Of a DNA stretch of 64,000 nucleotides, positions 2,900-63,552 are shown in pieces (the stretch's first letter is position 1; every line of letters begins with the position of its first letter). The position numbers and the translations under genes were made by a program. The notes beneath the pieces were generated by a model. It was not told the DNA's origin and ran no database searches. It saw only the letters and a list, made by a program, of their open reading frames with translations. Source of the DNA: Thermoanaerobaculia bacterium (GTDB lineage: Bacteria > Acidobacteriota > Thermoanaerobaculia > Gp7-AA8); the NCBI GenBank assembly GCA_035576005.1, contig DATLXH010000109.1:33058-97057 (forward strand), given 5' to 3'.

Positions 2900-4990
2900 A
2901 TGAACAGGTTGAATCGATCGGTCGCTTTGAGTGCGCTGCTTCTCATGGGCGGACTGCCTCTTTTCGCTCAGAAAGAACCGATCTCCCACGAAACACTCTG
3001 GCTCATGAAGCGGGTCGGCGCTCCTGCCGTCAGTCCTGACGGTAAGTGGGTCGTGTTCTTACTTACCTCTCCGTCGTACGAAGAGAAGGAACAAAGTGCC
3101 GACCTTTGGATCGTCCCCGCGGATCGGAGCGCAGAACCGCGACGCCTTACATCAACGAAGGCAACCGAGAACGACGTTGCCTGGAGCAATGACAGCCGCA
3201 GACTCGCCTTCGGAACCAAACGGGAAGGAGACGAGGAGAATCAGATTTACGTCATCGACATCGCCGGGGGTGAAGCGACGCGAGTCACCTCGCTCACTAC
3301 CGGAGCAAGGATGCCAGTCTGGAGTCCCGACAACAATGCGATCGCGTTCATGAGCGGAGTCTTTTTCGGGGCCGCCGATGAAGAAGCCAACAAGAAAACT
3401 GCTTCGGAGCGAAAGAGTCAGAAATTTAAAGTACGTGTTTACGACACATTCCCGATCCGCCGCTGGGACAAGTGGCTCGACGACGCGCAATCGCATGTTT
3501 TCGTTCAGAGACTCGACGCTGGCGCGAAGGCAAAGGACCTCCTCGCGGGAACGCTTCTGGTGAGCGGAGCAGGTTTCGGTGGCCGCGGCAGCGAGGGATC
3601 GGGCGATACTCTTGACCTGGCCTGGACGCCTGACGGAAAGTCGATTGTCTTCACGGCAACGAGTAACCGGAATACCTCGGCGTTCGCATTCACCAACACG
3701 CATCTTTACGAGGTCGCGGTCGCCGGCGGCGAGCCGAAACAGCTAACGAGCGGGAACGACAGCTTCAGCCGTCCAAAGTTCAGCTCTGACGGAAAGAAGC
3801 TCTACTACCTGATCTCGTCAGACTGGGGCAAAGTCTACGCCCTCGACAGGCTCGGGATGACAGCATGGGCATCCGGAGCCCTACGGTTCATCACGATCAC
3901 GAAGGATTTCGATCGATCGATTGGAAGCTGGGATCTGAGCGGAGACGGCCGCACGATCTATCTGACGGCTGAGCACGCAGGCACTGAGCGGATCTTTTCG
4001 ATGCCGGCGGACGGCGGTGAAGTCAAAGAGCTCGTCGCCCCTCCAACTGGTGTCTACACCTCCCTAACCGTCGCCGACCGCTCCCGGACCCCCGTTCTCA
4101 TCGCGAGCTGGGGAAGCTCGATCCAGCCGGCCGAGATTGTGTCGATCGATCCAGTTTCCAGGACCCACAAGCTCCTCACGAGCTTCAACGTCGCCAGCGC
4201 TGCGAAGATCGACTGGAGCGCTCCGCGGCACTTCTGGTTCACAAGCTCGCGCGGCAAGAAAATTCACAACATGATCGTGTTGCCTTCCGGGTTCGACCCA
4301 GCCAGAAAGTATCCGCTTTTCGTTCTCATTCATGGCGGCGCAGCCAACATGTGGCGCGATCAGATCTCCCTTCGATGGAATTACCATCTCCTTGTGAAGC
4401 CGGGCTACGTCCTGCTGCTGACGAACTACACAGGGTCCACCGGGTTCGGTGAGAAGTTCGCCCAGGAGATCGGAGGCGATCCTCTGGCCGGACCGGCGAC
4501 CGAGATCAACGAGGCGGCCGATGAAGCGATCAAGCAGTTTTCATTTATCGACGGATCGAGACAGGCGGCGGGTGGCGCAAGCTACGGCGGGCATCTCACG
4601 AACTGGCTCCTTGCCACCACGACCCGCTACAAGTGTCTCATCAGTCACGCCGGCCTGATGAACCTCGAGGCCCAGTGGGGAACGAGCGACGGAATCTACC
4701 ATCGCGAGATCGTGGCGGGTGGGCCGGTCTGGGAGCAGGGGAAAGTCTGGCGCGAACAGAACCCGATTCGCCGGGCGGCCAGCTTCAAGACGCCGATCCT
4801 CTTCTCAATTGGTGAGAACGACTTTCGCGTTCCCCTCAACAACACCCTCGAAGCATGGAGCGCCGTGCAGAGAATGCAGGTCCCGAGTCGCCTCCTTGTC
4901 TGGCCCGACGAAAATCACTGGATCCTCAAGGGAGAAAACTCCAGGGTCTTTTACCGCGAGGTCCACAACTGGCTGAGCAAGTGGCTCTGA
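2900..4990 (+). CDS. S9-family serine peptidase (dipeptidyl-aminopeptidase/acylaminoacyl-peptidase type) with an N-terminal beta-propeller and a signal peptide
   Basis: After the internal start MNRLNRSVALSALLLMGGLPLFA the sequence shows WD/PD-repeat-like segments. The catalytic GGASYGGHLTNWL (GxSxGG) motif is followed by D and H regions. The track ORF runs 2753..4990, but the first 49 codons derive from the repeat element. Confidence 0.85.
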   Translation: MNRLNRSVALSALLLMGGLPLFAQKEPISHETLWLMKRVGAPAVSPDGKWVVFLLTSPSYEEKEQSADLWIVPADRSAEPRRLTSTKATENDVAWSNDSRRLAFGTKREGDEENQIYVIDIAGGEATRVTSLTTGARMPVWSPDNNAIAFMSGVFFGAADEEANKKTASERKSQKFKVRVYDTFPIRRWDKWLDDAQSHVFVQRLDAGAKAKDLLAGTLLVSGAGFGGRGSEGSGDTLDLAWTPDGKSIVFTATSNRNTSAFAFTNTHLYEVAVAGGEPKQLTSGNDSFSRPKFSSDGKKLYYLISSDWGKVYALDRLGMTAWASGALRFITITKDFDRSIGSWDLSGDGRTIYLTAEHAGTERIFSMPADGGEVKELVAPPTGVYTSLTVADRSRTPVLIASWGSSIQPAEIVSIDPVSRTHKLLTSFNVASAAKIDWSAPRHFWFTSSRGKKIHNMIVLPSGFDPARKYPLFVLIHGGAANMWRDQISLRWNYHLLVKPGYVLLLTNYTGSTGFGEKFAQEIGGDPLAGPATEINEAADEAIKQFSFIDGSRQAAGGASYGGHLTNWLLATTTRYKCLISHAGLMNLEAQWGTSDGIYHREIVAGGPVWEQGKVWREQNPIRRAASFKTPILFSIGENDFRVPLNNTLEAWSAVQRMQVPSRLLVWPDENHWILKGENSRVFYREVHNWLSKWL

Positions 4991-5112
4991 TTCAGACAAA
5001 CACTCCCCGACGTCCGATCACGAACCGTTAACGTTCGAGTGGCGCATTCGTTGTCGCCGGACTCCTCGACACGAAGGTGCAGCAGTCGGTCAGATCACTC
5101 CAGTTCGATCTT

Positions 5113-5295
5113 TAGCCCGCATTTCTCACACTCCTTCGCGGCGAGGCGGCGGAGAGTGGCCTGGATGCGAGGCGCACGGCGATTTTGCGACGAGGCATAG
5201 TCGGCACTATGTCAAGGAGCGAAATTGCCGTGCAACGAAGCAGACAGGCCGCTATCCGTCGTCTCGCGGCGAAGGAGTGTGAGAAATGCAGGCTA
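5113..5295. mobile_element. MITE, copy 1 (~180 bp), with 18-bp terminal inverted repeats AGCCCGCATTTCTCACAC / GTGTGAGAAATGCAGGCT and flanking TA/TA
   Basis: It is ~90% identical to the copy at 43320-43503. The TA dinucleotide on both sides is the target duplication typical of IS630/Tc1-mariner MITEs. There is no internal ORF. Confidence 0.7.
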
Positions 5296-5296
5296 A

Positions 5297-7520
5297 CGGC
5301 ATGGTTCGGTCCCGGCATTCCGCCACGACCCTGGCGCCCGACCCGGGATTCCGCCCGAAATCGGCTGCAACAGCAACCGCGAAGCTGTCCGCAGAAGAAC
5401 TCCCCCATGCAGTTCGCTTGCGCGACCCCGTCTCGGTCAGTCAGAATGGCGCGCACACACTCACAAAAAGCGCTACCTCTTCGGAGCGTTCGAGCTCGAC
5501 GCCAATCTATATGAGCTCCGAGAAGGCACCCGGATTGTCCGCGTGGAGCCGCGCGTACTGGACGTTCTGTTTTACCTCGTGCGAAACCGCGACAGGGTCG
5601 TCTCGAAAGACGAGCTTCTCGAGAAGGTCTGGAAGACGACATTCATCGGCGAATCCGCGCTGAGCCGCTCCATCATGCAGGCGCGAAAGGCGATTGCGTC
5701 CGAAGAAGGAAGTGAGGAGGCGATCAAAACCATCCATCGCCGCGGCTATCGCTTCGTCGCCCCGACGGTCGAGGATCATGGGACGGAGCCAGGGCAGGAC
5801 CCGGCGACTGAGGATCCGGATCCGGTTTCGGCACCAGTTGCGGCCAGCGTTTCGGCGACTACCACACCGACGACGCTCATTTCGGAGAGTCTGGTCGTAG
5901 ATTCATCCCTTGTTAGTGGAGAGGCCGTCCGAGCGACCGGCCAATCGCACCAGGTCATCCGAGTTCGGAGGACGCTGATATTCGTGGCAGCGGCCATTGT
6001 CGTCATGTCCGCGCTTGCACTGCATCGTTCTCATGGCACTGTTCCCGTCTCATCTTCCAGAGGTGTGAGGCTGGCGATCCTTCCTGTTTCCCCCTCCGTC
6101 GCGGAGGATGCGGAGAGCCTGCTCCTCGCAGAGATGGTGAGTGATCTCCTGTCGATCAGACTGGCAGCCGTTCCTGGTCTGATTGTTCGTACACCCGGTG
6201 AGAGCGAGAGGTTATCGACGTCGATGAGCAGCCTCGCCGCGTTAGCACAGCGCGCCGGTGTGACCTTCGTACTCTCCGGAAGTTTGCGTCCGGTACGAGA
6301 GGCCGGCAAAGCTCGAATCGATCTGGCGCTGCACGAGTTTGGAATCAACGGTCGCACCGAAACCACATCTCTCGGTCGCTACGATATCCCTTTCGTCCGC
6401 AACCGGTTTGATGTGCAGCAGCTGCGCACGATCAATGACGGCATCGTTCAGCGAGTGATACGAGAGCTCGTTCCACTCATCCACGCCGGCCCCGCCGCCG
6501 GGGATTCGCCACGCGATCCGCACGCGTACCGACTGTATCTGCTCGGACGGGACCGACTGAGTGAGGAAAAATGTGACGGGGGGGGGCGCCCTCCAGCTGC
6601 TCGAGCGCTCGCTCGAGCTCGATCCTGGCTTCGCTCCGGCGTGGCAGGCTTTTGCACTCGCACACTACGGCCTCGCCTCCTCGTGTGGAGAGGATGCGAC
6701 TCACTACGAAAAAGCGCTGAACGGGATCAGGCGTGCCGTGAAGCTGCATCCGGATATGCCAAGCGCCATGGCGCTGGAAGCAACGGTGCTGGCCGAGAGC
6801 GGGCGCATCGAAGAGGCCTACGAATCTCTGATACGAAGGAAACGAGATGGTGCCGTGGCATGCGACATCGACTACGCGGCGTCAACCGTCCTGTCGTATG
6901 CGGGCTATCTTGATCCGGCGCGCAGGAAGCTCGACAGCGTTCTGAGGGCCGACCCCCAGTACCTCGCGATCGGTGGCTGGACGCCTAGTATTCATCTCTA
7001 TGAATCGGAGCCCGACCGATTTTTACGCTATCTCCCGGCGGCCGAGACCGCGTCGTTCCGCTATTACCGCGGGTACGCGCAGCTGCTTCAGGGAAAGATA
7101 CCTGCAGCACGTGAGAGCCTCGGGCCCGCGTTTCGTCTCAACCCCCACGACGTCTTTGCGAGGCTCAGTGCGGCGCTGCTCGATACCGTGGAGGGCCGAC
7201 CGGTAGAAGCCCTCGAAGTACTGCGCGGTCTCGAACGGCAACGCAGGGCTGTGGGCTCCACGGATGGTGCTCTCACTTACAAGCTCGCTCAGCTCTACGA
7301 GCGGGCGGGAGACAGCGACTCCGCTCTCGAGAGCCTTGGCCGCGCCGTCGACCAGGGATTCTTCTGTACGCCATGCTTCGCCGGCGATCCGCTCTGGAAT
7401 TCCGTCCGGTCGAAAGCAAAGTTTACCGACGCGTTCCGGCGCGCTGAATCGAGGCATCGCGCTTTCGGGAAGCGTTTCGGGTTTCTCGCGAGCTCCGGGA
7501 GCGGACAAGGGGCGCAGTGA
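5297..7520 (+). pseudogene. CadC/OmpR-type winged-helix regulator with a TM segment and a TPR domain. It appears disrupted, with no start codon after the MITE and a frameshift at a 9-G tract.
   Basis: The wHTH-coding frame is open from 5297, immediately after the MITE. It encodes ...YLFGAFELDANLYELREGTRIVRVEPRVLDVLFYLVRNRDRVVSKDELLEKVW...HRRGYRFVAP, but no ATG/GTG/TTG occurs before the GTG at 5543. ORF 5543..6913 then carries a TM helix (LIFVAAAIVVMSALAL). It shifts frame at GGGGGGGGG (6578-6586) into ORF 6561..7520, which is TPR-like. Deleting one G fuses the two reading frames. Confidence 0.55.
6578..6586 (+). repeat. homopolymeric G9 tract inside the regulator coding sequence (frameshift site)
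   Basis: Sequence is gacgggggggggcgcc. The ORFs upstream and downstream are offset by +1. Confidence 0.8.
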
Positions 7521-7587
7521 GCCACAAGTCAGGGAACCGTCACGTTACCAACATCCAACCATCAAGTATCGGAGAGTGTGCCGGCCT

Positions 7588-8007
7588 ATGTTGAGATCAA
7601 TGAAACTGCAACTCGCAATTGCCTTCCTATTCGCCGGGACAGCCTACCCTGGAGGGTCCTCCCCACCCGATCTCGCGATCTCATGGGTCCAGCCAGGGAC
7701 GTTGACTGGCACCGCGGGAGAGACGGCGCAAATTCGATACCTCATCCGTAATGTGGGGGGGACGGACGCTTTCGCGGTGATCTCCCGCATCGGGACGACT
7801 CTCGGTCCAATCGCGCCTGCACGGACACAACCCGGTCCCGAGGCTGGAAAAAGTCTCGAGCGCAAACTCGCTCTGGCCCTCGCCGTGGGCATGCGCGAGC
7901 TCTGCATCGACGTGACCTTGCAGAACATCGCGATCGACGATTCTCCGGATCCGAACCCAAAGAACAACCGCGCCTGCAGACCTGTGGTCGTGCAGGAACC
8001 CAAGTAA
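7588..8007 (+). CDS. small secreted protein, CARDB/Ig-like fold suspected
   Basis: Signal peptide MLRSMKLQLAIAFLFAGTA, then PDLAISWVQPGTLTGTAGETAQIRYLIRNVGGTDA, a CARDB-like pattern. The track ORF 7264..8007 overlaps the upstream TPR gene, so an internal start is used. Confidence 0.45.
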   Translation: MLRSMKLQLAIAFLFAGTAYPGGSSPPDLAISWVQPGTLTGTAGETAQIRYLIRNVGGTDAFAVISRIGTTLGPIAPARTQPGPEAGKSLERKLALALAVGMRELCIDVTLQNIAIDDSPDPNPKNNRACRPVVVQEPK

Positions 8008-8076
8008 AGGAAACCTTCCGTCGCTCAATGCCCCATGCGCTGTTGATCAAAGTCAGGCCCGTTAAAGGAGAATTTC

Positions 8077-9617
8077 ATGCTAGTCACCAGGTCACCCTTT
8101 CCTGTTTTACGAGTCGCGCTCGCGCTTTGCCTTGCGCTACTTTGTGTTTCCGATACTTCCCAGGCGCAATTCCCCGTTCTAACTTCGACAACGACGACCT
8201 TTTCCGTGTCCCCAGCCACAGTCACCGGAGGGGCGAACGCAACGGGCACAATCCGGTTTCCCGGCCTCAATAAAGGAGCAATCGTATTCGAGATCACCAG
8301 CAACAACGCGGTCGCAACCGTTCAGGAGACCGTGACGATGCTCAATCTCGCCGGAACGGCGAGCTTCCCGATCAGAACATCTCCCGTTGCCTCTTCCACA
8401 ACCGTGCAGATCCGCATCGTCGGAACCAATACCGATAGGACCGCAACCTTCACGATCGTTCCACCGGTGCTCTCCGGGTTTACGTTGTCTCCGGGTGCCA
8501 TTGTCGGAGGAAACGCTGTCATCGGCACGGTCACGCTTTCCGGTCCAGCGCCTCTGATCAGCGGAGGACCATTCCGGATTCCTCTTTTTAAATCCTTTGG
8601 GCCATCGGTCACCATGCCCTTCGTTGCCGCGGTCTCGTCCGGCCAGACCTCAGCACCATTCACGATCACGACCGTCCCGGTGCTCCAGGCAGAAAACGGG
8701 ACGATCACCGCCGGTGACGGCGAAACCGCCAGGTCAGTTCCTCTCACCCTGAATCCTCCAACTGTACAGACGATGACTTTTGCCTCTCGAGTGGTAGGGG
8801 GGCGGGTTTCAACTAGAGTCGTCGCCACTCTCAACGGACACCAGCGGGTTTCACGATGTCGGTGTCCAGCAGCTCGCCGGGAGTGATCGTTCCTCCTACA
8901 GTCACTGCCGACGCAATGAGTCGGGGAATCTTTTTGCCCGAGATCCAACCCGTGTTGGTTGACACACCAGCAACGATTACTGTGACAACAGGGAGCGTGA
9001 GTCGAAGTGTAAACTTCGTTGTCATTCCCCCGACGGTCAGTGCGATGAGCTGCACCAGTCCCGGCCGCACACCAGGCTCACCCGTCATCGGCGGCGACTC
9101 GGTGACAAACTGCAAGCTCACCCTCAACGGACCGGCGGCTGACGGCGGGATGAGTATCCCTCTCTTCAGCACCGGTCCAGGTTCGGTACCGTCATCTGTC
9201 AACGTGTCTGCGGGACAATTGGAAAGCGAGCCGTTCTCCGTCGCCACCACGCAGGTCACGAGCAGATCTCAGCTCTCGATCTTCGCAGGCTCAGCGAACG
9301 TCGGTGGGTTCACCGTGATTCCGGTCGCCGTGGCGAACCTGTTGCTTTCGACACAGACGGTTCCGGGCGGGACCATCGTTACCGCTTCGATCATCCTCAA
9401 CGGCGATGCGCCTCCGGGAGGATTCAGCGTACCGCTCTCCAGCGGAAACATCAGTGCCGCGACCGTGCCGCCGACCATTCTGGTTCCGGCGGGACAGACG
9501 ACCGGCAGCTTCCCCATCACCACCTCAGTCGTGCAGAACGACACGACCGTAACCATCACCGCTGGCGCGATCGGAGCGACAAGAACCGCGCCGCTGGTGG
9601 TTCGCGCGGGCTCGTAG
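8077..9617 (+). CDS. secreted protein made of at least six tandem ~85-aa Ig-like repeats. It is split into two overlapping ORFs by an apparent frameshift near 8850-8890.
   Basis: Signal peptide MLVTRSPFPVLRVALALCLALLCVS. A repeated motif runs VsPatVTGGanatGTv.L.GpAP.gG..v.LsS...a.vPptv.vpaGqts..Ftitt. Both ORFs (8077..8886 and 8856..9617) carry the same repeat. Confidence 0.5.
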
Positions 9618-9906
9618 AAACCGACGTTGCGCTTCCATGGTCATTCAGTGAAAAAGCAGCCGAATGTTGGTACGGTGTCGCAGTAGTGAGTTGGAACGAA
9701 GGAACGCCGGCTATCGACAGCGGCGTTCCTTCGTTGTTTTAACGGCGATTCGAACCTCGAGAACAACCGGGCGTTAGGCCGGTGCTCGCGGAGCTCGCAG
9801 TGACGGTGCCTCAGTAGTGGTTGAATATGAAAGAACGCCGGCTGGACTGATGGGTTCTTTCACCGCTTCGTCTGCATCCAACGTCTGATGGTCTCAAGGG
9901 AGTCGC

Positions 9907-10320
9907 ATGAAATGGATTGTCGCACTGATGCTCGTCGTCGGACTGCGCAGCGTCGCGTTAGCCGATGACCCGGCAATCACCGCCAACTTCACGGCGCAGC
10001 AACATCTGCCGTCCAACACTCCAATTGAACTGCGCCTCAATAGACCTCTGGAATCAACCGAGGGCCGTCTCGCGCTCTTCGTGGACAAGACCGACGTCAC
10101 CGCGCTCTTCACCGCCTTGCCGGGTCGCCTTGTCTATCAGGGAGAGCGATACCCTCTGCCTGCGGGTGAGCATGAGGTGATCGTGTATCTGGTCTCGCCC
10201 GAGGGATCGTGGAAGGAGATCGGGCGCTTTCCTGACACGTCGCGGCTTCTCGAAGTCGATCATCGCTCCCGCTGCCGATCTCACGGGGAAAGGACAGCTC
10301 GCCGAGACCCATCGACCTGA
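9907..10320 (+). CDS. small secreted protein; possibly the N-terminal part of the downstream beta-barrel gene
   Basis: Signal peptide MKWIVALMLVVGLRSVALA. The last ~20 codons look off-frame. All three frames are open across 10250-10360. Confidence 0.4.
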   Translation: MKWIVALMLVVGLRSVALADDPAITANFTAQQHLPSNTPIELRLNRPLESTEGRLALFVDKTDVTALFTALPGRLVYQGERYPLPAGEHEVIVYLVSPEGSWKEIGRFPDTSRLLEVDHRSRCRSHGERTARRDPST

Positions 10321-10360
10321 CCAGAACGCACCATCGCGATCGCAGTTCCAGGATGCGACG

Positions 10361-11974
10361 ATGCAGATGACGATCCGGAGCGAGCACGAGCGGCCAGGCT
10401 TCGCCGTGCGCAGCGAAGGTCAGATCACAGGCGTCACCTTTCGACAGGAAGCCCTGCGCTTTGGTGAGAAGCAGGACAGGGCGCCGCTCATCGACCTCTC
10501 GACCTATCGTGTTGACGTTCAGCGCGGGTCTGCGGTCCTATCCATCGGCCACCTCGGATATGGATCGCTACGGCACCTCGTGAATGGTTTCTCGAGCCGC
10601 GGGGTCGCTCTAAAGTACGGCGAAGGAAAGCGCCTCTCATTTCAGCTGGCGCTGCTCAATGGCAGCAGCATCGCAGGGTGGGACAACTTTTTCGGACTTG
10701 GTCAGGACAAGCATCGCATTCTCGGGGGAACTGTGGGAGCTGAGCTGATCCCGTCCAGACCAGGAGGTCTGCGTGTTGAGACGACGTTGTTCTCCGGGTC
10801 GCTGCTGCCGCTCTCCGGGTTCAACCAGGGATCCGTTCAGACAGCCGAGGAGAGTAACGGCGGCGGACTTCGCCTTCAGGCGACATCAAAGAATCAGAGG
10901 TTCACCGTCGACGCGGGGATCACAGGAAGCAGATTCAACGAGGCGCTGGACGAGGAGGTGGAGAGCGGTCTCGCCGTGACTCCAATCCCTTCAAGAACGC
11001 GGCGCGCACAGTACGCCGACGCCTCGTTCGTTCTGCTGCAGAACCGGACCCTGGGGAAACGAAAGACGGCTACGAATCTGGCACTGAGCGTCCGTCACGA
11101 ACGGATCGAGCCTCTGTTCCGAAGCGTTGGCGTATCGCTCCAGGCGGACCTGCAATCCGATACCGTCGATCTGACATGGGGCATCGGACCCTTCGCCACA
11201 CAGCTGAGCCACACCCGGACTCAGGACAACCTGGCTGGAATCGAAACGATCCTGACCACGAAGACTCAGCGCAACGCACTGACAGTAGGAGCGCCCCTGG
11301 CCACCGTCTTTGGAGCGGCGGAGAAGACCGCAAAGTATTTTCCTATCTTCGCGCTGCAACTGGACCAGACCCATCAGAAAGGTTCCGGCCTTCCGCCAAA
11401 CAGCGACTTCGAGCCGGCGAACCTGCCCGATCAGATCAGCCTCAACGGCGGGGCGAGTCTGGCCTGGCAGGTGGGCATTTTCCAGATCGGATACCGGATC
11501 GGCAAGACTCTGCAGGATAACCGTCAGATTGGACGGGAACGTGCGGACTTCGACACCTCGACGAATGCCGTGACGATCGGCTTCGCACCAGGCCAGCGCC
11601 TCAATGTCAGCTTCGATGTCTCGCGCGAAGAGAACGGCAGTGAAGAAGACGGCAAACGCGATCGAACCAATCGGTTCGGTACGAATGTGTCCTGGACACT
11701 TTTCGGCCAGACCGCGCTCGCGGGAAACATCTCGCAGACGCTTGGGAACAACAACCTCGGCACCAGCAATCAGCGAGGAACTGACGGGTTCCTGGAGCTA
11801 GCCTCGGGATTCAAGGTACCGCTCGGCGCCCAGAAACGACAAGGCCGTGCATTCGTGAGGTTCGCTGATCAACGGGCAAGATCGAAAGACCTCGTGTTCG
11901 GTACGAGCTCAGACAGACAAGGTGCGACGGTTACGTCCGGAGTGACCTTCAGCCTCTTCAAGGGGGAGAAATGA
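10361..11974 (+). CDS. putative outer-membrane beta-barrel (porin-like) protein
   Basis: 537 aa with many short amphipathic strand-like segments: QRFTVDAGITGSRF, ATNLALSVRHE, TVDLTWGIGPF, GASLAWQVGIFQIGYRIG, NAVTIGFAPGQRLNVSFDVS, TNVSWTLFGQTALAGNISQTLG, GATVTSGVTFSLF. It is rich in G/N/S/T/Q. Confidence 0.55.
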   Translation: MQMTIRSEHERPGFAVRSEGQITGVTFRQEALRFGEKQDRAPLIDLSTYRVDVQRGSAVLSIGHLGYGSLRHLVNGFSSRGVALKYGEGKRLSFQLALLNGSSIAGWDNFFGLGQDKHRILGGTVGAELIPSRPGGLRVETTLFSGSLLPLSGFNQGSVQTAEESNGGGLRLQATSKNQRFTVDAGITGSRFNEALDEEVESGLAVTPIPSRTRRAQYADASFVLLQNRTLGKRKTATNLALSVRHERIEPLFRSVGVSLQADLQSDTVDLTWGIGPFATQLSHTRTQDNLAGIETILTTKTQRNALTVGAPLATVFGAAEKTAKYFPIFALQLDQTHQKGSGLPPNSDFEPANLPDQISLNGGASLAWQVGIFQIGYRIGKTLQDNRQIGRERADFDTSTNAVTIGFAPGQRLNVSFDVSREENGSEEDGKRDRTNRFGTNVSWTLFGQTALAGNISQTLGNNNLGTSNQRGTDGFLELASGFKVPLGAQKRQGRAFVRFADQRARSKDLVFGTSSDRQGATVTSGVTFSLFKGEK

Positions 11975-13236
11975 GACGCGTTCTTCTGCTCACAGTCGTC
12001 ATGATCTGCACGCTCAACGTTACGGCGCAGATTCGTAGAGATCCGGTTGGCGTCAACGTCAATACACAGGGTCCCACCACCGTCTTCATCAGTTATGGCA
12101 ACGTCCAGGGCAAGATCGCCGCAGAGGCGGTCTGGTGCGCCGGTCTGGTTCCGGCAGCTCCGGATATCGGAATGAAATGCAATCCGGCATCGACCTGGGG
12201 CCGTCTTCCGGCGCGATACGACCTCACGAGGACGAGCGGAGTGAATGGACTCACCGACATCATGACGATCACGCAGAACGTGGCGCGTCGTGCCTACGAG
12301 AGCGCCGCGAGAGGAGCGAAGTCGAGTTTCTTTTACGTGCGACGCTTCATTGACCCCGCGGGCGGTCCGGATGAGTACGTCTTCGTCATTTGTCGACTTG
12401 CCGGCGGAGGCGCAAGCGTGCCGCTCGCGCTCACGGATGTGAAGCTGCAGTTCGCTACGGAGAAGCAAGTCCTCTCCACCCGCGTCGGCGAGGCCCCGCC
12501 GGCACTCTCGGCTGACATCGTCTACAACGGAACGGGACGACTTGCCGGTCGCTGGGAGGTCGTCCTCCCGGGAGACGAGCCGCCGACCTCCGAGGATCTG
12601 CTCACCGAAGGAAGCCTTCCGATCGAGCTCCGTGGACAGCAGAGACGTTACACGCAGTTGGAACGCTTCAACGTATTCCTGCCTCCCGGCGGTCGTCATC
12701 GACTGGAAGGGCCACCACCTTCGAAGCTGCCGACGAGCGTTGAGGGTCTGTATCTGGTCCTGCTGCGCGTCGAAGCAACGAACGACAAGGAAGGCAACAC
12801 CGACCTGGCGGCACTGGGGTCGGGAGGCGGTGTGGTGACGAGCGGCGGCGTGGCGGGTTTCTCCCTGCCGGTTCTCCGATATTACGTAGGCTCGACGAAT
12901 CCTTCCCTCGAGGCGGGAGTCCGCGAGCAGATCGAACAGATCCTTCCGCTCCCCGGTTTCGAGGTGCAGCGAACTGCACCCCTTGAATTCACATTCCGCT
13001 CGGACTTGCCCGACGTGGTGCTGTCACGCCTCGAGGTTCGCGACGCGTCCCAGGCCATTGTCCTGTCCGCGATCGTCGATCGCAGCAGCGGCAGATACGT
13101 TGCTCCGAGCTGGTTGGCTGAGAAGATCAGTGGCGACGCGCTCTCATGGAGAGTCGTCGGCCTCAACGCCGAGAGCCGCGTTGTACAGAGCTCGACGTGG
13201 CGGATCCTGAAGTACTCAAAGGCAAAGGAACAATGA
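11971..13236 (+). CDS. secreted hypothetical protein, translationally coupled to the beta-barrel gene (4-nt overlap)
   Basis: Signal peptide MRRVLLLTVVMICTLNVTAQ. 421 aa with no recognisable catalytic motif. Start and stop overlap the upstream gene. Confidence 0.55.
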   Translation: MRRVLLLTVVMICTLNVTAQIRRDPVGVNVNTQGPTTVFISYGNVQGKIAAEAVWCAGLVPAAPDIGMKCNPASTWGRLPARYDLTRTSGVNGLTDIMTITQNVARRAYESAARGAKSSFFYVRRFIDPAGGPDEYVFVICRLAGGGASVPLALTDVKLQFATEKQVLSTRVGEAPPALSADIVYNGTGRLAGRWEVVLPGDEPPTSEDLLTEGSLPIELRGQQRRYTQLERFNVFLPPGGRHRLEGPPPSKLPTSVEGLYLVLLRVEATNDKEGNTDLAALGSGGGVVTSGGVAGFSLPVLRYYVGSTNPSLEAGVREQIEQILPLPGFEVQRTAPLEFTFRSDLPDVVLSRLEVRDASQAIVLSAIVDRSSGRYVAPSWLAEKISGDALSWRVVGLNAESRVVQSSTWRILKYSKAKEQ

Positions 13237-13489
13237 GCTTTGTGAAGCGGAAGCAATGCGATTCTCTCGATGCTCGAAGAGCGTGACGCTTCGGCGTCCA
13301 TCTGCCCTTCAGAGGTCGCCGTCAGATGGCGCCGCGTGCCTCGCGAAGACACATGGAGGACGTCAGAAACGCGGCGCGACGCTTCGCCCGACGCGAAGAG
13401 GTGGCGATCACCCAACGCGGAAAAGTGCTCGATCCCGACAGTGAGTTTCGCGGCTCCGTCCGAATCTCCCGGCCACGATAGCCCGCATT

Positions 13490-15628
13490 TCATTTCCCCT
13501 TTGGCATCTGCAAGCCGAGATTTGCAACCAGGAACGCCCACTGGTCAGCGATCTCTTCAATTGTCTTGGTGATCGGCTTGCCGGCGCCATGTCCGGCGCG
13601 GGTCTCGATCCGAATCAGAACCGGATCCGTCCCGGCCTGCGCCTCCTGCAATGCGGCGGCGAACTTGAAGCTGTGACCTGGAACGACGCGGTCATCATGA
13701 TCGGCGGTTGTCACCAGCGTGGCGGGGTAATGCTTTCCCTTGCGCAGGTTGTGGTATGGCGAGTAAGCGTAGAGAGCCTTGAACTCCGTGGGATCGTCAG
13801 CGGAACCGTAGTCGTCGACCCAGTATCGGCCAGCTGTGAACTTGTGAAAGCGAAGCATGTCCATGACGCCAACGGCCGGGAGCGCAGCTCCGAAGAGCTC
13901 CGGACGCTGGGTCATCACTGCTCCGACCAGCAGGCCGCCGTTGCTCCCTCCCCAGATCCCAAGCTTTTCCGGGCGGGTATATTTGTTCGCTACCAGCCAC
14001 TCCGCTGCAGCGATGAAATCGTCGAAGACGTTCTGCTTCTTGAGCTTCGTTCCCGCCTTGTGCCACTCCTCTCCGTACTCCCCGCCTCCGCGCAGATTCG
14101 GCAAGGCATACACCCCTCCCATCTCCATCCACACCAGACGTGAGATGGAAAATCCGGGAGTCATCGACGCGTTGAATCCGCCGTAGGCATAGAGCAGCGT
14201 CGGGTTGTTGCCGTCCAGACGGACTCCCTTCTTGTGCGAGATGAACATCGGCACACGTGTCCCGTCCTTGGACTTGTAGAACACCTGCTTGACTTCGTAC
14301 TGATTCGGGTCGAATTTCACGTTGGCGCGAGAGACCAGCTTCTTCTCGCCCGTGACCACGTCATAGCGGTAGATGCTCGGGGGAACGGTAAAGCTGGCGA
14401 AAGAGTAGAACGTTTCCGGGTCGTTCGGCTTGCCCGAAAAGCCAGACGCTGTGCCGATCGTTCCCAACTCCAGCTTGCGGACCAGCTTGCCCTCAGTCGT
14501 GAAGACCTTTACTTCGCTCTTGGCATCCTCGAGGTACTCGGTGACGAAATGCCCTCCAACGTAGTCGACGTCAGTGAGCGAGTTTTCGCTCTGAGCAATG
14601 ATCCCCTCCCACTTGCTCCGGTCTGGCTGCCGGACGTTGATGGCGATGAGGCGGGCTCGGGGAGCGTCGAGGTCGGTCTTGAAGTAGAAGCGAGGGCCGT
14701 CGTTGCCAACGAACGAATACTCGTTGTCGAAATTGTCAATCAGAGCGATCGGCATCCCGTACGGCTCAGTGAGGTCTTTGTAGAGAATCTGATTCCTGGC
14801 GTCCGTCCCTTTCCAGACCGAGATGATCAGGTACCGGCCATCTTCCGTGACACTGGCCGAATAGCTCCACTCGGGCTGCTCGGGCCGGTGGTAGACCAGG
14901 ACATCCTCGGATTGCGGCGTCCCGACCCGATGGTAGTAAAGCTTCTGATTTTTGTTGAGGCTCTGAAATGTCGAGTTCGTGGAAGGCTCGGGAAAGCGAC
15001 TGTAAAAAAATCCTTTGCTGTCCCTGGTCCAGTCAGTCCCAGAGAATTTCACCCACTTCAATTCGTCGGAAAGCAGTTTGCCGCTCTCGATCTCCATCAC
15101 TTTCCAGGTTGTCCAGTCCGAGCCCGCCTCCGAGACGCCGTAGGCCATGTGGCGGCCGTCATCGCTGAACGAGTAGCCGGCGAGCGCGATCGTTCCGTCT
15201 TTTGACCAGCTGTTGGGATCGAGGAGGGTCCGGGCTGTGGACTCCAGCGATTTCTGCACATAAAGGACTGATTGGTTCTGGAGGCCGCTATTCTTTTGAA
15301 AGTAATACCGCCCTCCCCTTTTGGTCGGTATCGAATACTTCTCGTAATTCCAGATCTCTGTCAGACGCTGCTTGATCGATTCACGATAAGGGAGCGTTTG
15401 CAGATAGCCGAAGGTCACCTTGTTTTGTGCTTCGATCCATTCCGAGACCTCCCTGGACTCCCGAACGTCGGTTTCCAGCCAGCGATAGGGATCGATCACC
15501 TCCACTCCGGCGAAGCTGTCCTTCTGCTCGACCTTCCTGGTCGGCGGATACACAAACTTCGTCTGGGCACTGGCACCGAATGCCCCGAGGGTCAACAGCA
15601 ACAAGGCGGCTGCGCGAACCTTCATCAT
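13490..15628 (-). CDS. prolyl oligopeptidase (S9A family), secreted
   Basis: Signal peptide. The N-terminal beta-propeller is followed by a C-terminal alpha/beta hydrolase domain with GGSNGGLLVGA (catalytic Ser), then D and H regions. The sequence is typical of prolyl endopeptidases. Confidence 0.9.
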   Translation of the reverse strand: MMKVRAAALLLLTLGAFGASAQTKFVYPPTRKVEQKDSFAGVEVIDPYRWLETDVRESREVSEWIEAQNKVTFGYLQTLPYRESIKQRLTEIWNYEKYSIPTKRGGRYYFQKNSGLQNQSVLYVQKSLESTARTLLDPNSWSKDGTIALAGYSFSDDGRHMAYGVSEAGSDWTTWKVMEIESGKLLSDELKWVKFSGTDWTRDSKGFFYSRFPEPSTNSTFQSLNKNQKLYYHRVGTPQSEDVLVYHRPEQPEWSYSASVTEDGRYLIISVWKGTDARNQILYKDLTEPYGMPIALIDNFDNEYSFVGNDGPRFYFKTDLDAPRARLIAINVRQPDRSKWEGIIAQSENSLTDVDYVGGHFVTEYLEDAKSEVKVFTTEGKLVRKLELGTIGTASGFSGKPNDPETFYSFASFTVPPSIYRYDVVTGEKKLVSRANVKFDPNQYEVKQVFYKSKDGTRVPMFISHKKGVRLDGNNPTLLYAYGGFNASMTPGFSISRLVWMEMGGVYALPNLRGGGEYGEEWHKAGTKLKKQNVFDDFIAAAEWLVANKYTRPEKLGIWGGSNGGLLVGAVMTQRPELFGAALPAVGVMDMLRFHKFTAGRYWVDDYGSADDPTEFKALYAYSPYHNLRKGKHYPATLVTTADHDDRVVPGHSFKFAAALQEAQAGTDPVLIRIETRAGHGAGKPITKTIEEIADQWAFLVANLGLQMPKGK

Positions 15629-15775
15629 GATTCCTCCCGAGCTCGACTGCGTTCAGGCGACTCTTCCTGCCCGCTACGTTGCGAGGCATGAGTGCGAAGT
15701 CCGGTCCAGAAGAGCGGAGTTTGCCGTGGAGCAGGTTGGCCAAGGATGGCATCGCGCAAAGCGCCTCGTGCGGAC

Positions 15776-16525
15776 TCATTCACGCATCGCACGGAGTCTG
15801 ATGGCACGGAGCCACATCACGCGGATGAAGGAGCTTCCCGGGTAGATGAAACGCCAGTAGACCGCAAAGCGGCGTCGGGCGGAAAGGCTGTTGGCATGAA
15901 CCCTGGTGGTCGTGGAAACAATCGAGCCGCCGGTGGCATCGGGAGTGACGATGAAGTTCATCGTCGCCAGTGTGATTCCAGGTGGCAACTGGCGCCGGAA
16001 CTTGTCTGGCGTCAACTTCCCGATGCCGATACCGGCTGGAGCCGAGATGACGCTTCCAACAACCATCTCGCGCGGCGCCTCGTCGGCGAGCCAGATGAAC
16101 CCTGATCTCGTGGCGACCTCGAGGATCGGCTTCTCATCAGGGGCATTGAGAACACTCTCTCTGGTGCGACGTCCGCCGCGACGGATCGTGGTGAGAAGCC
16201 GGAACAGCGTGATCTCGTCGGCACGAACTTTGTGGATCGCGTCATAGACGCGCTCCGGCGGAGCTGCGACCCGCGTAACGTGATGCTCGTCGAACTCCCA
16301 CACCGACATGAACGAGTCGAGCTTCGATGAATGCTGTGAAACACGCATTTCTGGCGCCGGCAAGAACGCGGCAACGAGAGAGATACCGAGACCCACAGCT
16401 GCGAGTGCGGCCCCCCGTCTCCTGGTGCGAACCCGAAACATCCGAAGAGGGCGGATCATGCTGAGGCAACCGAGAGTCAGCAATATGAGTCCGCTGTAGA
16501 GTAAGAGCGAGCCTGACACCGGCAT
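15776..16525 (-). CDS. hypothetical membrane-anchored protein
   Basis: N-terminal TM segment (LLLYSGLILLTLGCLSMI), then a ~200-aa soluble domain. No motif recognised. Confidence 0.45.
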   Translation of the reverse strand: MPVSGSLLLYSGLILLTLGCLSMIRPLRMFRVRTRRRGAALAAVGLGISLVAAFLPAPEMRVSQHSSKLDSFMSVWEFDEHHVTRVAAPPERVYDAIHKVRADEITLFRLLTTIRRGGRRTRESVLNAPDEKPILEVATRSGFIWLADEAPREMVVGSVISAPAGIGIGKLTPDKFRRQLPPGITLATMNFIVTPDATGGSIVSTTTRVHANSLSARRRFAVYWRFIYPGSSFIRVMWLRAIRLRAMRE

Positions 16526-16984
16526 GATTGTAGTTCTGATGGCAGTGGATGAGCGGCCGACCGTCGATCGCCTCCACTTTGCGGGCAGCGGAGGCCGACC
16601 GCGCGGGCCGAGAAGATTAGATCGTCTCGACTGCCTTCTTCATCGCGGCGTGCGCGACAACCATGGTCCTCGGTCATGGAGGAGTGATGCATCGCGACGC
16701 GAGCGAGTGTCGCGACCCTAATGGCGAAAAAGTACGGGAGCCGCTGACGGATGCTGCGTGTGCGAAGGTCCATTTGCCAAATTCTCCCTGAAGACGAATG
16801 GCTGATGACTCGTCGTGGGAGCGACGTGAATCAAGCGTACGCTGTTTGGAAACTGAGGGGTGAAAATCACATGGATCCCTTCCGCTATCAAGTTCGGCGC
16901 CCCCCTCCAGCTCGCATTTTCACCGACCTTTGTCGTTAGACGGCGCTGCCCGACGGCAGGACGAAGTAGACCCCGCCAGAACTC

Positions 16985-17160
16985 CACTTCGCGGTTCACC
17001 CAGATCCAGAGTGTCGTGAGCAGCGAGTCTCACAGCTCCTCGGACTTACGTCCTTTGCAGTCCTCTCGAATGCGTGAGGTTTCAACCGCGGGGGGCACTC
17101 GGCAATCGATTCAGACACTAAAAACAGGTCGAGCCGAGGCTCGCCCTTTCTGGTGAAACT
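16985..17160. repeat. ~160-nt duplicated block, copy 1; ends in a terminator-like hairpin GGTCGAGCCGAGGCTCGCCC
   Basis: It shares CCAGATCCAGAG(T/C)GTCGTG(T)GAGCAGCGAGTCTCACAGCTC and ...CGAGCCGAGGCTCGCCCTTTCTGGTGAA..TGAAATC with 18010-18135. It lies in a ~680-nt ORF-less region. Confidence 0.55.
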
Positions 17161-17208
17161 TCGTTGAAATCCCAATGCTCCTGACGCCAGTGATATGACG
17201 GGCGCTCC

Positions 17209-17604
17209 TCATCGTCTGCCAGCCCACACCGCTGCCTTGTAGTGGCGGCGGATGGACGCGTCCTTGGTGAGTAACCTCGCCGCCTCGAGCCCAGCCTGCG
17301 CGACGATCAATCGATCGAAAGGATCGCGAGTCCAACTGGACCCGCATGCCTCCCGGACCACGTCCTCGAAGGGTGCGGTCGCCGTGTGAAGCCCGATGGT
17401 TCGCTCCAGTGAAACAACGATCGTCGCTGCGTCCGCATCGATCCTGCGAATCTCGTTCAAATACTGCAGCTCGAGCAACACGATCGGCGAGATCGCAAGT
17501 TCATCTTCTTCCATCACGCCACGCACTCTCGAGGGAAACAGATCTACGCGACCGGCGTATAGCCACACCACCACGTGCGTGTCGAGGTGGATCACGGTTT
17601 CCAC
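17209..17604 (-). CDS. vapC: PIN-domain toxin (VapC family)
   Basis: 131 aa with LDTHVVVW...acidic residues in the PIN pattern. The start overlaps the upstream antitoxin stop. Confidence 0.75.
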   Translation of the reverse strand: METVIHLDTHVVVWLYAGRVDLFPSRVRGVMEEDELAISPIVLLELQYLNEIRRIDADAATIVVSLERTIGLHTATAPFEDVVREACGSSWTRDPFDRLIVAQAGLEAARLLTKDASIRRHYKAAVWAGRR

Positions 17605-17813
17605 TCGTCGGACCAGTCGATGTGAACCAGTTCCTGCGGTTCGACAAGGATGCAGTCACGCTTCTCGAGACGCGAGAATTTAGACGTGGTCTCCGGAGGA
17701 GAAATCTTGAGAATCTTGCCACGACGCTCGATTTCCAGAGGGACGCCACTGTCGAGCACCTCGTCGAGAACGCGATAAATGTTCTGGCGCAACTTCGAAG
17801 CGGTCATTTTCAT
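17592..17813 (-). CDS. Phd/YefM-family antitoxin
   Basis: 73 aa, MKMTASKLRQNIYRVLDEVLDSGVPLEIERRGK..., a Phd/YefM-like N-terminus. It overlaps the vapC start by 13 nt. Confidence 0.7.
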   Translation of the reverse strand: MKMTASKLRQNIYRVLDEVLDSGVPLEIERRGKILKISPPETTSKFSRLEKRDCILVEPQELVHIDWSDEWKP

Positions 17814-17929
17814 TACGTACGTTCCTTGTTTGCCAAAACGTACGTACGTGCGTCAGGCATTCCACTGTACGCCCAGGACGCGAGGTGACGGCACAAAGAG
17901 ACCTCTCCGCCCGGGCCCCGGCCGGGAGA

Positions 17930-18020
17930 TTCGCGAGACTTTCACGCCCCTCACCCTGCTCCGCTTCGCTCGCTTCCCTCTCCCCGCCGGGGAGAGGGAG
18001 ACGCCGCTTCGCTGCTCAGC
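17930..18020. repeat. REP-like element, half copy B
   Basis: GAGACTTTCACGCCCCTCACCCTGCTCCGCTTCGCTCGCTTCCCTCTCCCCGCCGGGGAGAGGGAGACGCCGCTTCGC matches the B-half of copies A and C. Confidence 0.65.
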
Positions 18021-26780: not shown

Positions 26781-26820
26781 ACTTCCGGAAGGACGACGAA
26801 TCGGAGCAAATGCACGATGT

Positions 26821-26845
26821 GGCCGGACACGCCAATGTCCGGCGC
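26821..26845. repeat. GGCCGGACA(C/T)(G/T)CCAATGTCCGGCG repeat, copy 2
   Basis: Single palindromic unit in the rplL-rpoB intergenic region. Confidence 0.65.
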
Positions 26846-27015
26846 CCTCACGCGCATCAAGTCAGATCGTTCGAAGCTTCTCTGGGGTGTAGTGCCCTGT
26901 CAGGGAATCCGACGATGCGAGGTTCGCCGCAGGCAACGCGTCGAAATGATTCGCGGGTTTTGAGTCAATGTGGAGAAGGCCGCTCCCCCCCTCTCCTGAC
27001 TCGCAAATGTAAAAG

Positions 27016-30405: not shown

Positions 30406-30429
30406 GCATCGACTCCCCGAAACGTGGGC

Positions 30430-30506
30430 TGGCAGGCCAGGAGGGACTCGAACCCCCAACAAGCGGTTTTGGAGACCGCCGCTCTACCAATTGGAGCTAC
30501 TGGCCT
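30430..30506 (-). tRNA. tRNA-Trp (anticodon CCA)
   Basis: Minus-strand sequence is AGGCCAGUAGCUCCAAUUGGUAGAGCGGCGGUCUCCAAAACCGC...GGGUUCGAGUCCCUCCUGGCCUGCCA. It has a cloverleaf with T-loop GTTCGAGTC and an encoded CCA. This is the canonical position between rpmG and secE. Confidence 0.85.
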
Positions 30507-30609
30507 AAATTGCTGATTTTATGAATTCAGAGCTGGACATCGGAAGCGAGGGCTCGCGAAAAGAGCCGCAAACGGGCTACAGGTCGCGTGCCAACCGTTT
30601 TATTCCCAA

Positions 30610-30768
30610 CTATTTCGCTTCACGATGGACCGTGTGCCGGCGATCGTGACGGCAGAATTTCTTGAGCTCGATTTTCTCGGTCGTCGTCTTTTTGTTCTTG
30701 GTCGTCGAGTAATTCCGACGTTTGCACTCGGTGCACTGAAGGGAAATGATTTCGCGGACGGCTGCCAT
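30610..30768 (-). CDS. rpmG: 50S ribosomal protein L33
   Basis: Reverse-complement translation gives [52 protein letters not shown] (52 aa). It is too short for the ORF track. Confidence 0.85.
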
Positions 30769-30860
30769 GGTGATCTCCGTGTTGTAGATTCTGACTGCAG
30801 TGCAGCCGAAAAGTTTCTGGTTTCATCCCGAGCGAGGGATAACACCATCATATGAATTTC

Positions 30861-30935
30861 TGGAGCCCTCTACGAGAGTTGAACTCGTGACCCCGTCCTT
30901 ACCAAGGACGTGCTCTACCCCTGAGCTAAGAGGGC
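30861..30935 (-). tRNA. tRNA-Thr (anticodon GGT)
   Basis: Minus strand GCCCUCUUAGCUCAGGGGUAGAGCACGUCCUUGGUAAGGACGGGGUCACGAGUUCAACUCUCGUAGAGGGCUCCA. Confidence 0.85.
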
Positions 30936-30966
30936 TGATCTCATTAAATGCAGAATTTGAATGCGT

Positions 30967-31041
30967 TGGAGCGGGAGACGGGGATCGAACCCGCGACCAA
31001 CAGCTTGGAAGGCTGTGACTCTACCACTGAGTTACTCCCGC
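30967..31041 (-). tRNA. tRNA-Gly (anticodon TCC)
   Basis: Minus strand GCGGGAGUAACUCAGUGGUAGAGUCACAGCCUUCCAAGCUGUUGGUCGCGGGUUCGAUCCCCGUCUCCCGCUCCA. Confidence 0.85.
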
Positions 31042-31105
31042 GTTTTTGAGCTGACGCACCGACCCTTTCGTTTCGTCGAGTCGTCAGGTCGGTAAGGTTT
31101 ACGAT

Positions 31106-31192
31106 TGGTGGAGAGAGGAGGATTCGAACCTCCGAAGGGTGAAACCCGGCAGATTTACAGTCTGCTGCCTTTGGCCGCTCAGCAATCTCTCC
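31106..31192 (-). tRNA. tRNA-Tyr (anticodon GTA), long variable arm
   Basis: Minus strand GGAGAGAUUGCUGAGCGGCCAAAGGCAGCAGACUGUAAAUCUGCCGGGUUUCACCCUUCGGAGGUUCGAAUCCUCCUCUCUCCACCA. Confidence 0.85.
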
Positions 31193-31213
31193 TCATTTCT
31201 CGCAAGCGTGGCT

Positions 31214-31289
31214 TGGAGCTGGCGATGGGACTCGAACCCGCGACCTGCTGATTACAAATCAGCTGCTCTGCCAACTGAGCTACGCCAGC
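31214..31289 (-). tRNA. tRNA-Thr (anticodon TGT)
   Basis: Minus strand GCUGGCGUAGCUCAGUUGGCAGAGCAGCUGAUUUGUAAUCAGCAGGUCGCGGGUUCGAGUCCCAUCGCCAGCUCCA. Confidence 0.85.
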
Positions 31290-31361
31290 ATGAATCGGTT
31301 TTTCAAAGACACAAACAGCCACAAATGACGACTGGGGGGGGAAGGAGCCCTCCGAAACGAG

Positions 31362-36399: not shown

Positions 36400-36640
36400 A
36401 GAATCTCGTCGCGACCTGCTGCGCGCGACAGATGCGAGCGAGCCGCGAAGCGGCGTTCCCTCTCCCCGGCGGGGAGAGGGAAGCGAGCGAAGCGAAGCAG
36501 GGAGAGGGGCGTGAAAGTCTGGCGATCCATTAGAAAGTCGCAGTCTCCGTATCTCTCGCGGCCCCTCTCCCGGTCGCTGGCGCGACCACCCTCTCCCCGC
36601 CAGGGAGAGGGTTTCGCGCGTCCCTCCGGGTCTGTCGCGC
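36400..36640. repeat. REP-like element, copy C (inverted relative to copy A)
   Basis: Palindromes CCCTCTCCCCGGCGGGGAGAGGG at ~36457-36480 and CCCTCTCCCCGCCAGGGAGAGGG at ~36589-36611 flank a GCGAAGCGAAGCAGGGAGAGGGGCGTGAAAGTC core. It lies in the gltX-ispF spacer. Confidence 0.7.
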
Positions 36641-37824: not shown

Positions 37825-37848
37825 TCGGATTGCTGGGCTTAAATTTGT

Positions 37849-37925
37849 GGCCGGACGTCCCAATGTCCGGCGTCGGGAGTGGCCCGGGACAGGTTGAAGG
37901 CGCCGGACATTGGGATGTCCGGCCA
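37849..37925. repeat. GGCCGGAC(G/A)T(C/T)CCAATGTCCGGCG repeat, copy 3 (two inverted units)
   Basis: Units at 37849-37872 and 37900-37925, in the frr-ispD spacer. Confidence 0.7.
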
Positions 37926-41301: not shown

Positions 41302-41335
41302 CGTGATGGATACTGCCAAGTTGATCCTCCTTATG

Positions 41336-52314: not shown

Positions 52315-52327
52315 AACGCGAGCTGCG

Positions 52328-63550: not shown

Positions 63551-63552
63551 CC

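Follow-up and report, generated by a model that had tools for sequence, protein, structure and literature searches.

A probable recent pseudogene of a ToxR/CadC-like regulator within a decaying accessory module of Thermoanaerobaculia

The DNA analyzed here, a stretch of 64,000 nucleotides (nt) referred to below as the window, comes from an uncultured soil bacterium of the Thermoanaerobaculia (Acidobacteriota) and carries at 5297-7520 the remains of a regulator gene in which a winged helix-turn-helix (wHTH) domain, a transmembrane (TM) helix, and a tetratricopeptide repeat (TPR) sensor follow one another. We consider it very likely that this gene is a real, recently inactivated pseudogene of a ToxR/CadC-like regulator and that it belongs to an accessory module in decay. 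Two independent single-nucleotide events would account for its state. The start codon would have been lost, apparently by an ATG-to-AAG change at 5468-5470, and a +1 slippage would have turned a run of eight G residues (G8, encoding Gly-Gly-Gly) into nine (G9), cutting the DNA-binding and membrane part off from most of the sensor. An earlier note on this DNA had described the gene as disrupted twice and had offered, as one of three readings, a decaying pseudogene produced by insertion of a miniature inverted-repeat transposable element (MITE) at the 5' end and by slippage at the G tract. The two disruptions and the frameshift at the G tract stand, and of the three readings the pseudogene is favored; truncation by the element does not hold, as the element lies outside the coding sequence, with 172 nt between it and the former start codon, and the start position itself reads AAG. 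The parts of the gene are as follows.

5296-5467 (+): putative non-coding leader/promoter region; negative in frame-2 codon usage, stop-free by chance
5468-5470 (+): AAG codon at the ancestral start position, as placed by a start survey of 11 loci; reads K-R-Y-L-F-G
5474-5764 (+): OmpR/PhoB-type wHTH domain, YLFGAFELD ... HRRGYRFVAP; Pfam PF00486 Trans_reg_C
5972-6022 (+): single predicted TM helix TLIFVAAAIVVMSALAL, read from the sequence, with RVRR and HR on its flanks
6023-6577 (+): predicted extracytoplasmic alpha/beta domain plus first TPR helix, from alignment to homologues P0001-P0006 and the P0001 model; labeled 'TolB-like' by JGI
6578-6586 (+): G9 tract and +1 frameshift site, from the sequence and the homologue alignment
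6587-6913 (+): out-of-frame tail of the wHTH frame, 109 codons ending with TGA at 6911-6913; the frame-2 codon-usage score falls after about 6550-6570
6588-7520 (+): TPR-like all-helical sensor domain in frame 0; Pfam, NCBIfam, and Foldseek

The wHTH frame (frame 2) is open from 5297 to the TGA at 6911-6913, and its earliest ATG, GTG, or TTG is the GTG at 5543, exactly as had been stated before. The G9 tract at 6578-6586 is the longest homopolymer of the window. Past this tract, the coding signal shifts to frame 0 (6561-7520), in which TPR models of Pfam match above their cut-offs. A codon-usage model of limited sensitivity, trained on the long open reading frames (ORFs) of the window, placed its maximal-scoring segments at 5462/5465-6547/6571 in frame 2 and at 6567-7436 in frame 0. 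The raw sequence, the switch in codon usage, and the Pfam matches agree on the +1 shift into a TPR ORF that the note had described. Upon removal of one G, the two ORFs were joined as a continuous protein of 683 aa, counted from the ancestral start, such that the proposed fusion by a single-G deletion was borne out and only its estimated length (~650 aa) was not. The repaired junction, in which ...RLSEEKCDGGG is followed by ALQLLERSLELDP, showed no gap versus the homologues; likewise, ...AYRLYLLGRDRLSEEKCDGGG followed by ALQLLERSLELDPGFAPAW was colinear and ungapped against a homologue reading ...AYRLYLLARDRLSQGACDGEASVELLKRSIELDPNFAPAW. A G8 tract (GGG GGG GGC, Gly-Gly-Gly) would put the frame right at this site, which in the P0001 model corresponds to residues 325-330, the loop joining the first TPR helix to the second.

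Relatives were sought in 5.8 billion protein clusters, GTDB representatives, and JGI metagenomes. The search with the repaired protein yielded single-ORF homologues of 595-683 aa (query coverage, 93-97%; identity, 38-48%), among which P0001, P0003-P0006, and P0012 are uninterrupted ORFs of 630-683 aa at 97% coverage. The comparison with orthologues that the earlier note had called for thus found intact single ORFs spanning both fragments, which refute the alternative that the two genes are naturally separate. In the scan of GTDB representatives, conducted with a five-sequence alignment, the source genome was absent and no relative exceeded 36% identity; the scan of JGI metagenomes with the repaired protein gave nothing above 42%. 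The closest regulator homologue with DNA is L095 (52-54% identity). No homopolymer is present in the homologues at the G9 site, where L095 reads TGT GAC GGC GAG GCG.

The homologues also define where the gene once began. They start with M-x-(Y/F)-x-F-G, 3-4 residues ahead of the conserved F-G; in 9 of the 11 homologous loci, counting back exactly two codons from the residue that aligns to the Y of YLFG leads to an ATG or GTG. P0002 is seemingly short at its N terminus, but its DNA, L095, has an in-frame ATG that yields MIYRFGAFELD (ATG ATT TAC AGA TTC GGA GCG TTC GAG CTC GAC). Because the start position of the homologues holds AAG in the window, we infer that the start was lost at 5468-5470, most likely by ATG>AAG through T>A at 5469. 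Upstream of this codon, frame-2 codon-usage scores ranged from -11 to -1.6 in 5297-5467 and became positive from about 5465-5480, and no homologue carries an N-terminal extension matching 5297-5467. A promoter scan of 4900-5600 found no sigma-70-like site. Initiation at GTG 5543 would drop all four N-terminal strands of the wHTH domain in the P0001 model and would be expected to destabilize the domain.

As for the kind of protein encoded, the earlier description of an OmpR/CadC-type wHTH-TM-TPR regulator was upheld. Trans_reg_C (PF00486) matched residues 31-103 of the repaired protein (E 1.9e-13; 50.7 bits versus a gathering cut-off of 26.2), and in the TPR part TPR_19, TPR_14, and TPR_2 reached 40.5, 34.2, and 33.1 versus Pfam gathering scores of 25, 23.5, and 27, together with NCBIfam TPR_END_plus (40.4 bits versus a cut-off of 32). 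A linker of low complexity lies between the wHTH domain and the one predicted TM helix, and the Pfam scan found no Response_reg domain in the repaired protein. For structure, the AlphaFold model of homologue P0001 (predicted local distance difference test, 87; predicted template-modeling score, 0.73) stood in for the repaired protein. It comprises a wHTH domain with a four-stranded N-terminal sheet (1-102), a disordered linker, a long helix (129-150), an alpha/beta domain of strands and helices (158-293), and an all-helical repeat domain (307-626; first helix, 307-322); the counterpart of the TM segment is modeled as helix 129-150, between the disordered linker and the alpha/beta domain. When this model was run in Foldseek, TPR superhelices came at the top and the periplasmic domain of CadC (3lya) ranked 39th, a weak match (E 1.1e-4; template-modeling score of 0.39 normalized to the target) to which generic TPR proteins were superior. 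The domain order suggests a ToxR/CadC-like membrane-bound one-component regulator with a cytoplasmic wHTH domain, one TM helix, and an extracytoplasmic sensor, a family described previously (PMC5430869). Apart from the two lesions, all conserved residues are kept in the fragments of the gene.

With CadC and ToxR, the regulator shares the N-terminal OmpR-type wHTH domain, the single TM helix, the C-terminal extracytoplasmic sensor, and the lack of a receiver domain, and the NCBIfam CadC model aligns to its residues 28-191. It differs from CadC in scoring 58.7 bits versus the cut-off of 400 for equivalog NF007540, in having a sensor composed of an alpha/beta domain and a TPR superhelix of ~320 aa, and in its setting, since it sits in Acidobacteriota beside unrelated uncharacterized secreted/outer-membrane genes and is a pseudogene here. 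The combination of wHTH with TPR recalls HilA/EilA, to which the best NCBIfam similarity was found (69.7 bits, residues 5-108), but this match covers the N-terminal domain only and the cut-off of equivalog NF009037 (589 bits) was not reached. HilA is cytoplasmic and is not known to have a TM helix or the alpha/beta domain. With the best NCBIfam similarities, those to HilA/EilA and CadC, both far under their cut-offs, the regulator is an orthologue of neither CadC nor HilA. In domain order, length, and start position it resembles uncharacterized proteins (P0001-P0006, P0012), labeled 'wHTH / TolB-like / TPR' by JGI, that occur in Acidobacteriota and in other bacteria of soil. Those homologues are intact single ORFs without a poly-G tract, whereas the copy in the window is start-less and frameshifted.

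Downstream of the regulator lies a series of secreted and outer-membrane genes, two of which are broken as well.

7588-8007 (+): 139-aa signal-peptide protein, intact, directly downstream of the regulator; no Pfam match
8077-9617 (+): Ig-like repeat secreted protein, broken; ORFs 8077-8886 and 8856-9617 in two frames
9907-11974 (+): 690-aa outer-membrane-like protein, broken; a 137-aa ORF (9907-10320) with a signal peptide and a 537-aa ORF (10361-11974) with none
11971-13236 (+): 421-aa protein, intact; always 3' of the outer-membrane-like gene in relatives

The Ig-like gene carries a 1-nt deletion at ~8837/8838, which shifts frame 1 to frame 0 inside a repeat unit and not in a homopolymer; the fused 513-aa reading is colinear over residues 12-513 with P0238, a single ORF of 508 aa (46% identity; E 5e-120). 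In the outer-membrane-like gene, DNA alignment with the orthologues in L096 and L097 revealed an 11-bp deletion at ~10237/10238, and 99% of the fused 688-aa query was covered by single ORFs of 687-702 aa with identities of up to 76%. Pfam has no model for this family, which occurs widely in Acidobacteriota, nor was a Pfam family found for any of the structural proteins of the module. The 421-aa protein is 77-80% identical over residues 1-419 to the proteins encoded just 3' of the outer-membrane-like orthologues in L096 and L097 (modules at 8511-13493 of L096 and 6454-13345 of L097), and the 139-aa protein is 50% identical to the product of a 136-aa gene immediately 3' of the L095 regulator. 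The 139-aa gene and a regulator of this type form a conserved gene pair. Furthermore, two relatives have orthologues of the outer-membrane-like and 421-aa proteins (70-80% identity) with a neighboring wHTH-TPR regulator that belongs to another paralogue group. Because such pairing recurs in relatives, the regulator is circumstantially tied to the adjacent uncharacterized genes, and regulators of this type may control such secreted/outer-membrane modules.

Altogether, three of the five adjacent genes carry four lesions, two of which cannot be homopolymer errors. Such clustering, with two lesions outside homopolymers, argues for a real local relaxation of selection and not for poor sequence quality. 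Outside 5.4-13.2 kb, rpoB, rpoC, rpsB, tsf, coaE, dihydroorotate dehydrogenase, and both S9 peptidases showed full-length Pfam coverage, folD is intact, and the other G7, G8, and C7 runs of the window break no genes. A frame-switch scan of the rest of the window gave no further convincing case; two candidates, at ~40.5 kb (rpsB/tsf) and ~45.1 kb (folD/coaE), proved to be normal gene junctions. In this Thermoanaerobaculia population, selection thus appears to have ceased to act on the module as a whole.

The lesions were recovered by two assemblers. Logan contig L092 (run SRR7741809) equals 5251-17990 of the window at 100% identity, including the AAG, the G9, and both neighbor lesions, such that the two assemblies are identical base for base over 12.7 kb with a single G9 path in each. 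Their sole difference lies at 63543, in a repeat at the contig end. The regulator sequence is carried by one sample only. Exact look-ups of the 319-aa and 456-aa ORFs in the contig index gave no match, other proteins of the window did lead to Logan contigs of SRR7741809, and the literature yielded no hit to this run accession.

The element upstream of the regulator is one of several copies in the window.

5113-5295 (no strand): MITE-like repeat copy A, 183 bp, termini TA-GCCCGCATTTCTCACA...TGTGAGAAATGCAGGC-TA; intergenic, upstream of the regulator
43320-43503 (no strand): copy B, 184 bp, with 91% identity to copy A; flanked by PIN-domain and methyltransferase genes
~63402-63545 (no strand): degenerate copy C, 83% identity to the copy B core

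That this is an inverted-repeat element of the MITE kind, as had been proposed, was supported by its multiple copies, its long arms, and its sharp TA boundaries. The arms of copy A (5112-5168 and 5240-5296) are 57 nt long and 86% complementary, and the whole copy folds as one hairpin (dG -146 kcal/mol; z -16.8). Homology between copies A and B stops exactly at the flanking TA on both sides; both full copies are thus bracketed by TA...TA, although the self-complementary TA could belong to the inverted repeat instead of a target-site duplication. The repeat consensus begins TAGCCCGCATTTCTCACA..., and its core pattern is also matched in Logan contig L091. The repeat was not matched in the 97 fetched loci outside the source genome, neither an Rfam nor a protein match was found to the copy A region (4900-5600), and the window contains no transposase or autonomous element with the same ends. 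Copy A resembles the TA-target MITEs of bacteria (IS630/Tc1-mariner derivatives) and long palindromic intergenic repeats in its size (~183 bp), its non-coding nature, and its terminal inverted repeats, and also in that its full copies are TA-bounded, multi-copy, and intergenic, with assembly breaks at the copies. It is unlike them in being one long hairpin throughout, and no parent insertion sequence (IS) or transposase with matching ends was identified. The MITE label is reasonable for the 183-bp element.

Logan contigs break inside copy A, the left-hand one at 5169 and the right-hand one at 5251, as they also do at other small repeat families, and these breaks fit a multi-copy element in de Bruijn assembly. 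The longest perfect inverted stretch of copy A measures 21 nt; a graph with k=31, as we take that of Logan to be, would not be broken by the palindrome alone. Copy A and its kin are a new small palindromic repeat family of Thermoanaerobaculia that fragments short-read assemblies. In relation to the regulator, the element would be an upstream bystander or possibly a disruptor of the promoter, in which case its insertion might have silenced the promoter first. Two further observations concern the copies themselves. Between copies A and B there are paired differences that leave the hairpin intact (left CT/right AG in A versus left GA/right TC in B), pointing to constraint on the inverted repeat or else to the existence of two subfamilies. 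At copy B, the stop codon TAG (43320-43322) of a PIN-domain toxin-like ORF (42861-43322) coincides with the first bases of the repeat, and the methyltransferase ATG called by the ORF finder (43494) falls within its other end.

Several other accounts of the regulator gene were weighed against recent inactivation. The coding sequence could once have reached upstream of 5297 and lost its start to the element, since the wHTH frame opens directly behind the element, which is a genuine mobile-type repeat. This is hardly credible, given that the homologues have no extension there and their start aligns to 5468-5470. The frame opens right after the element by coincidence, because the terminal TA of the element precedes an A, giving the TAA stop at 5294-5296, and 5297-5467 scores as non-coding; an open run of 57 codons is nothing unusual here, ~31% of random window positions having at least that many stop-free codons upstream. 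A different model of the 5' end, which we ranked second, takes the ATG at 5446 (frame 1) as the start and supposes that the A5 run (5465-5469) gained 1 nt; it would encode MARTHSQKRYLFG... and misses the conserved start position. Recoding, in which transcriptional slippage or +1 ribosomal frameshifting at the G9 gives some full-length protein, is just as improbable as truncation by the element. Both frames are open across the G tract, and polymerase slippage on long homopolymers is established for A/T runs in endosymbionts and IS elements. Against recoding, the wHTH domain has no usable upstream start codon, the tract is unconserved in homologues, and no stop, rare, or hungry codon is found at the G9 to stimulate a +1 shift, the zero frame continuing for 109 codons.

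The earlier note had also offered a phase-variable switch on the G tract, and we regard this as very unlikely. In such a contingency switch, G8 would be ON and G9 OFF through slipped-strand mispairing, and the population would keep a reversible gene. The coding tract, whose length sets the frame, is indeed reminiscent of the homopolymeric-tract contingency loci of Neisseria, Haemophilus, and Campylobacter: a G8/G9 run is a classic substrate for slippage, G8 is exactly in frame, no homopolymer of the window is longer, and the gene is otherwise well preserved. Here, however, the tract is not conserved, as the homologues are tract-free at the site, and such tracts are not enriched, with 5 G/C runs of at least 7 observed in the window versus 4.7 expected and 1 of at least 9 versus 0.26 expected in 64 kb (first-order Markov model, analytic expectation). 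The G9 tract and the open upstream frame are both within chance. Moreover, G8 alone would not restore expression of a gene whose start codon is gone, this start-codon loss being a second, irreversible lesion; the two neighboring genes that would presumably be its targets are irreversibly broken, and both assemblers contain one G9 path. Nor do we favor the suggestion that two sequencing or assembly errors produced the picture. If the true genome had G8, and perhaps ATG, the gene would be intact and the G9 a homopolymer consensus error, and it is true that homopolymers are the most error-prone sequences, that the window is a contig of a metagenome-assembled genome (MAG), and that the assemblies probably share a read set. 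This account is also unlikely, if a little less so than the switch: the two assemblers agree over 12.7 kb, the 5' lesion is a substitution, the neighbor lesions are an 11-bp deletion and a 1-nt deletion outside any homopolymer, the other G7/G8/C7 runs spare the genes, and the long housekeeping ORFs are intact.

Some points nevertheless weigh against a recently inactivated regulator in a decaying module. The window belongs to a third-party-annotated MAG, and a single run very probably underlies both this MAG and the Logan contigs, which makes two assemblers but one data set; a systematic read error at the G9 could conceivably have been carried into both. Because MAGs are consensus sequences of populations, the four lesions may be spread over more than one chromosome. 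The ancestral bases, and with them the direction of the mutations, are deduced from distant homologues (38-48% identity for the full-length regulator, up to 76% for the outer-membrane-like protein). The ATG 5446 model requires a single event and would make both regulator lesions homopolymer insertions; the frame-switch scan was crude, one version having missed known cases; and the regulator gene could conceivably retain low-level function, since its conserved residues are kept.

Other features of the window were recorded in passing. A second interspersed repeat family occurs at 2562-2646, 17934-18018, and 36457-36525 (inverted), and also at 2466-2548/36534-36617, with copies 94-98% alike; Logan contig L092 ends at 17990, within one of these copies. 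The short repeat TGTGGCCGGACATTCCAATGTCCGGCGG, which has an internal palindrome, is present in at least 5 intergenic copies (2754-2791, 26818-26855, 37846-37883, 41334-41371, and, inverted, 37895-37925), and Logan contig L094 begins at 2768, within one of them. A palindrome of ~66 nt with a perfect center, AGACAAGAGTGTCTGTCC...GGACAGACACTCTTGTCT, has two copies (52326-52391 and 63547-63616) that bound Logan contig L091, and the degenerate MITE copy C abuts the latter. An intergenic G8 tract (31334-31341), just downstream of a tRNA-like repeat cluster (30429-31273), precedes by ~97 nt the ATG of an ORF of 514 aa (31438-32982, no Pfam family). A restriction-modification/defense-like pair at 55377-60763 (-) of the window, also in L091, consists of an MmeI/Eco57I-type N6 methyltransferase-endonuclease (1058-1070 aa) and an SNF2/helicase (725 aa) and adjoins a sigma-54-dependent response regulator.

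In the public record (locus tags VNM92_102xx; proteins HXI13009-13060), the TPR half of the regulator (6561-7520) stands by itself as HXI13012, a 'tetratricopeptide repeat protein' of 319 aa. The wHTH half is unannotated; in its place stand two antisense hypotheticals, HXI13010 (90 aa, 5507-5779, -) and HXI13011 (80 aa, ~6245-6484, -), which are very probably spurious calls filling this half. Both neighboring pseudogenes are likewise split into fragments.

Two extensions of recent inactivation are conceivable and rather unlikely: the element silenced the regulator and the module then decayed neutrally in a stepwise shutdown, or the G tract still switches between ON and OFF in strains that keep the ATG. 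If either were true, the region would be a rare natural snapshot that ties an uncharacterized, widely conserved module of Acidobacteriota to one regulon; the module comprises the wHTH-TPR regulator together with the outer-membrane-like (690 aa) and 421-aa proteins, all without a Pfam family. As it stands, the case is one of ordinary biology, a recently dead gene cluster in an uncultured soil Thermoanaerobaculia bacterium and not a genetic switch. Views on gene regulation and phase variation are unchanged by it, and its main value lies in a cautionary example and in a correction of the annotation, by which the region would be recorded as one decaying module and its fragments would not be counted as novel small genes.

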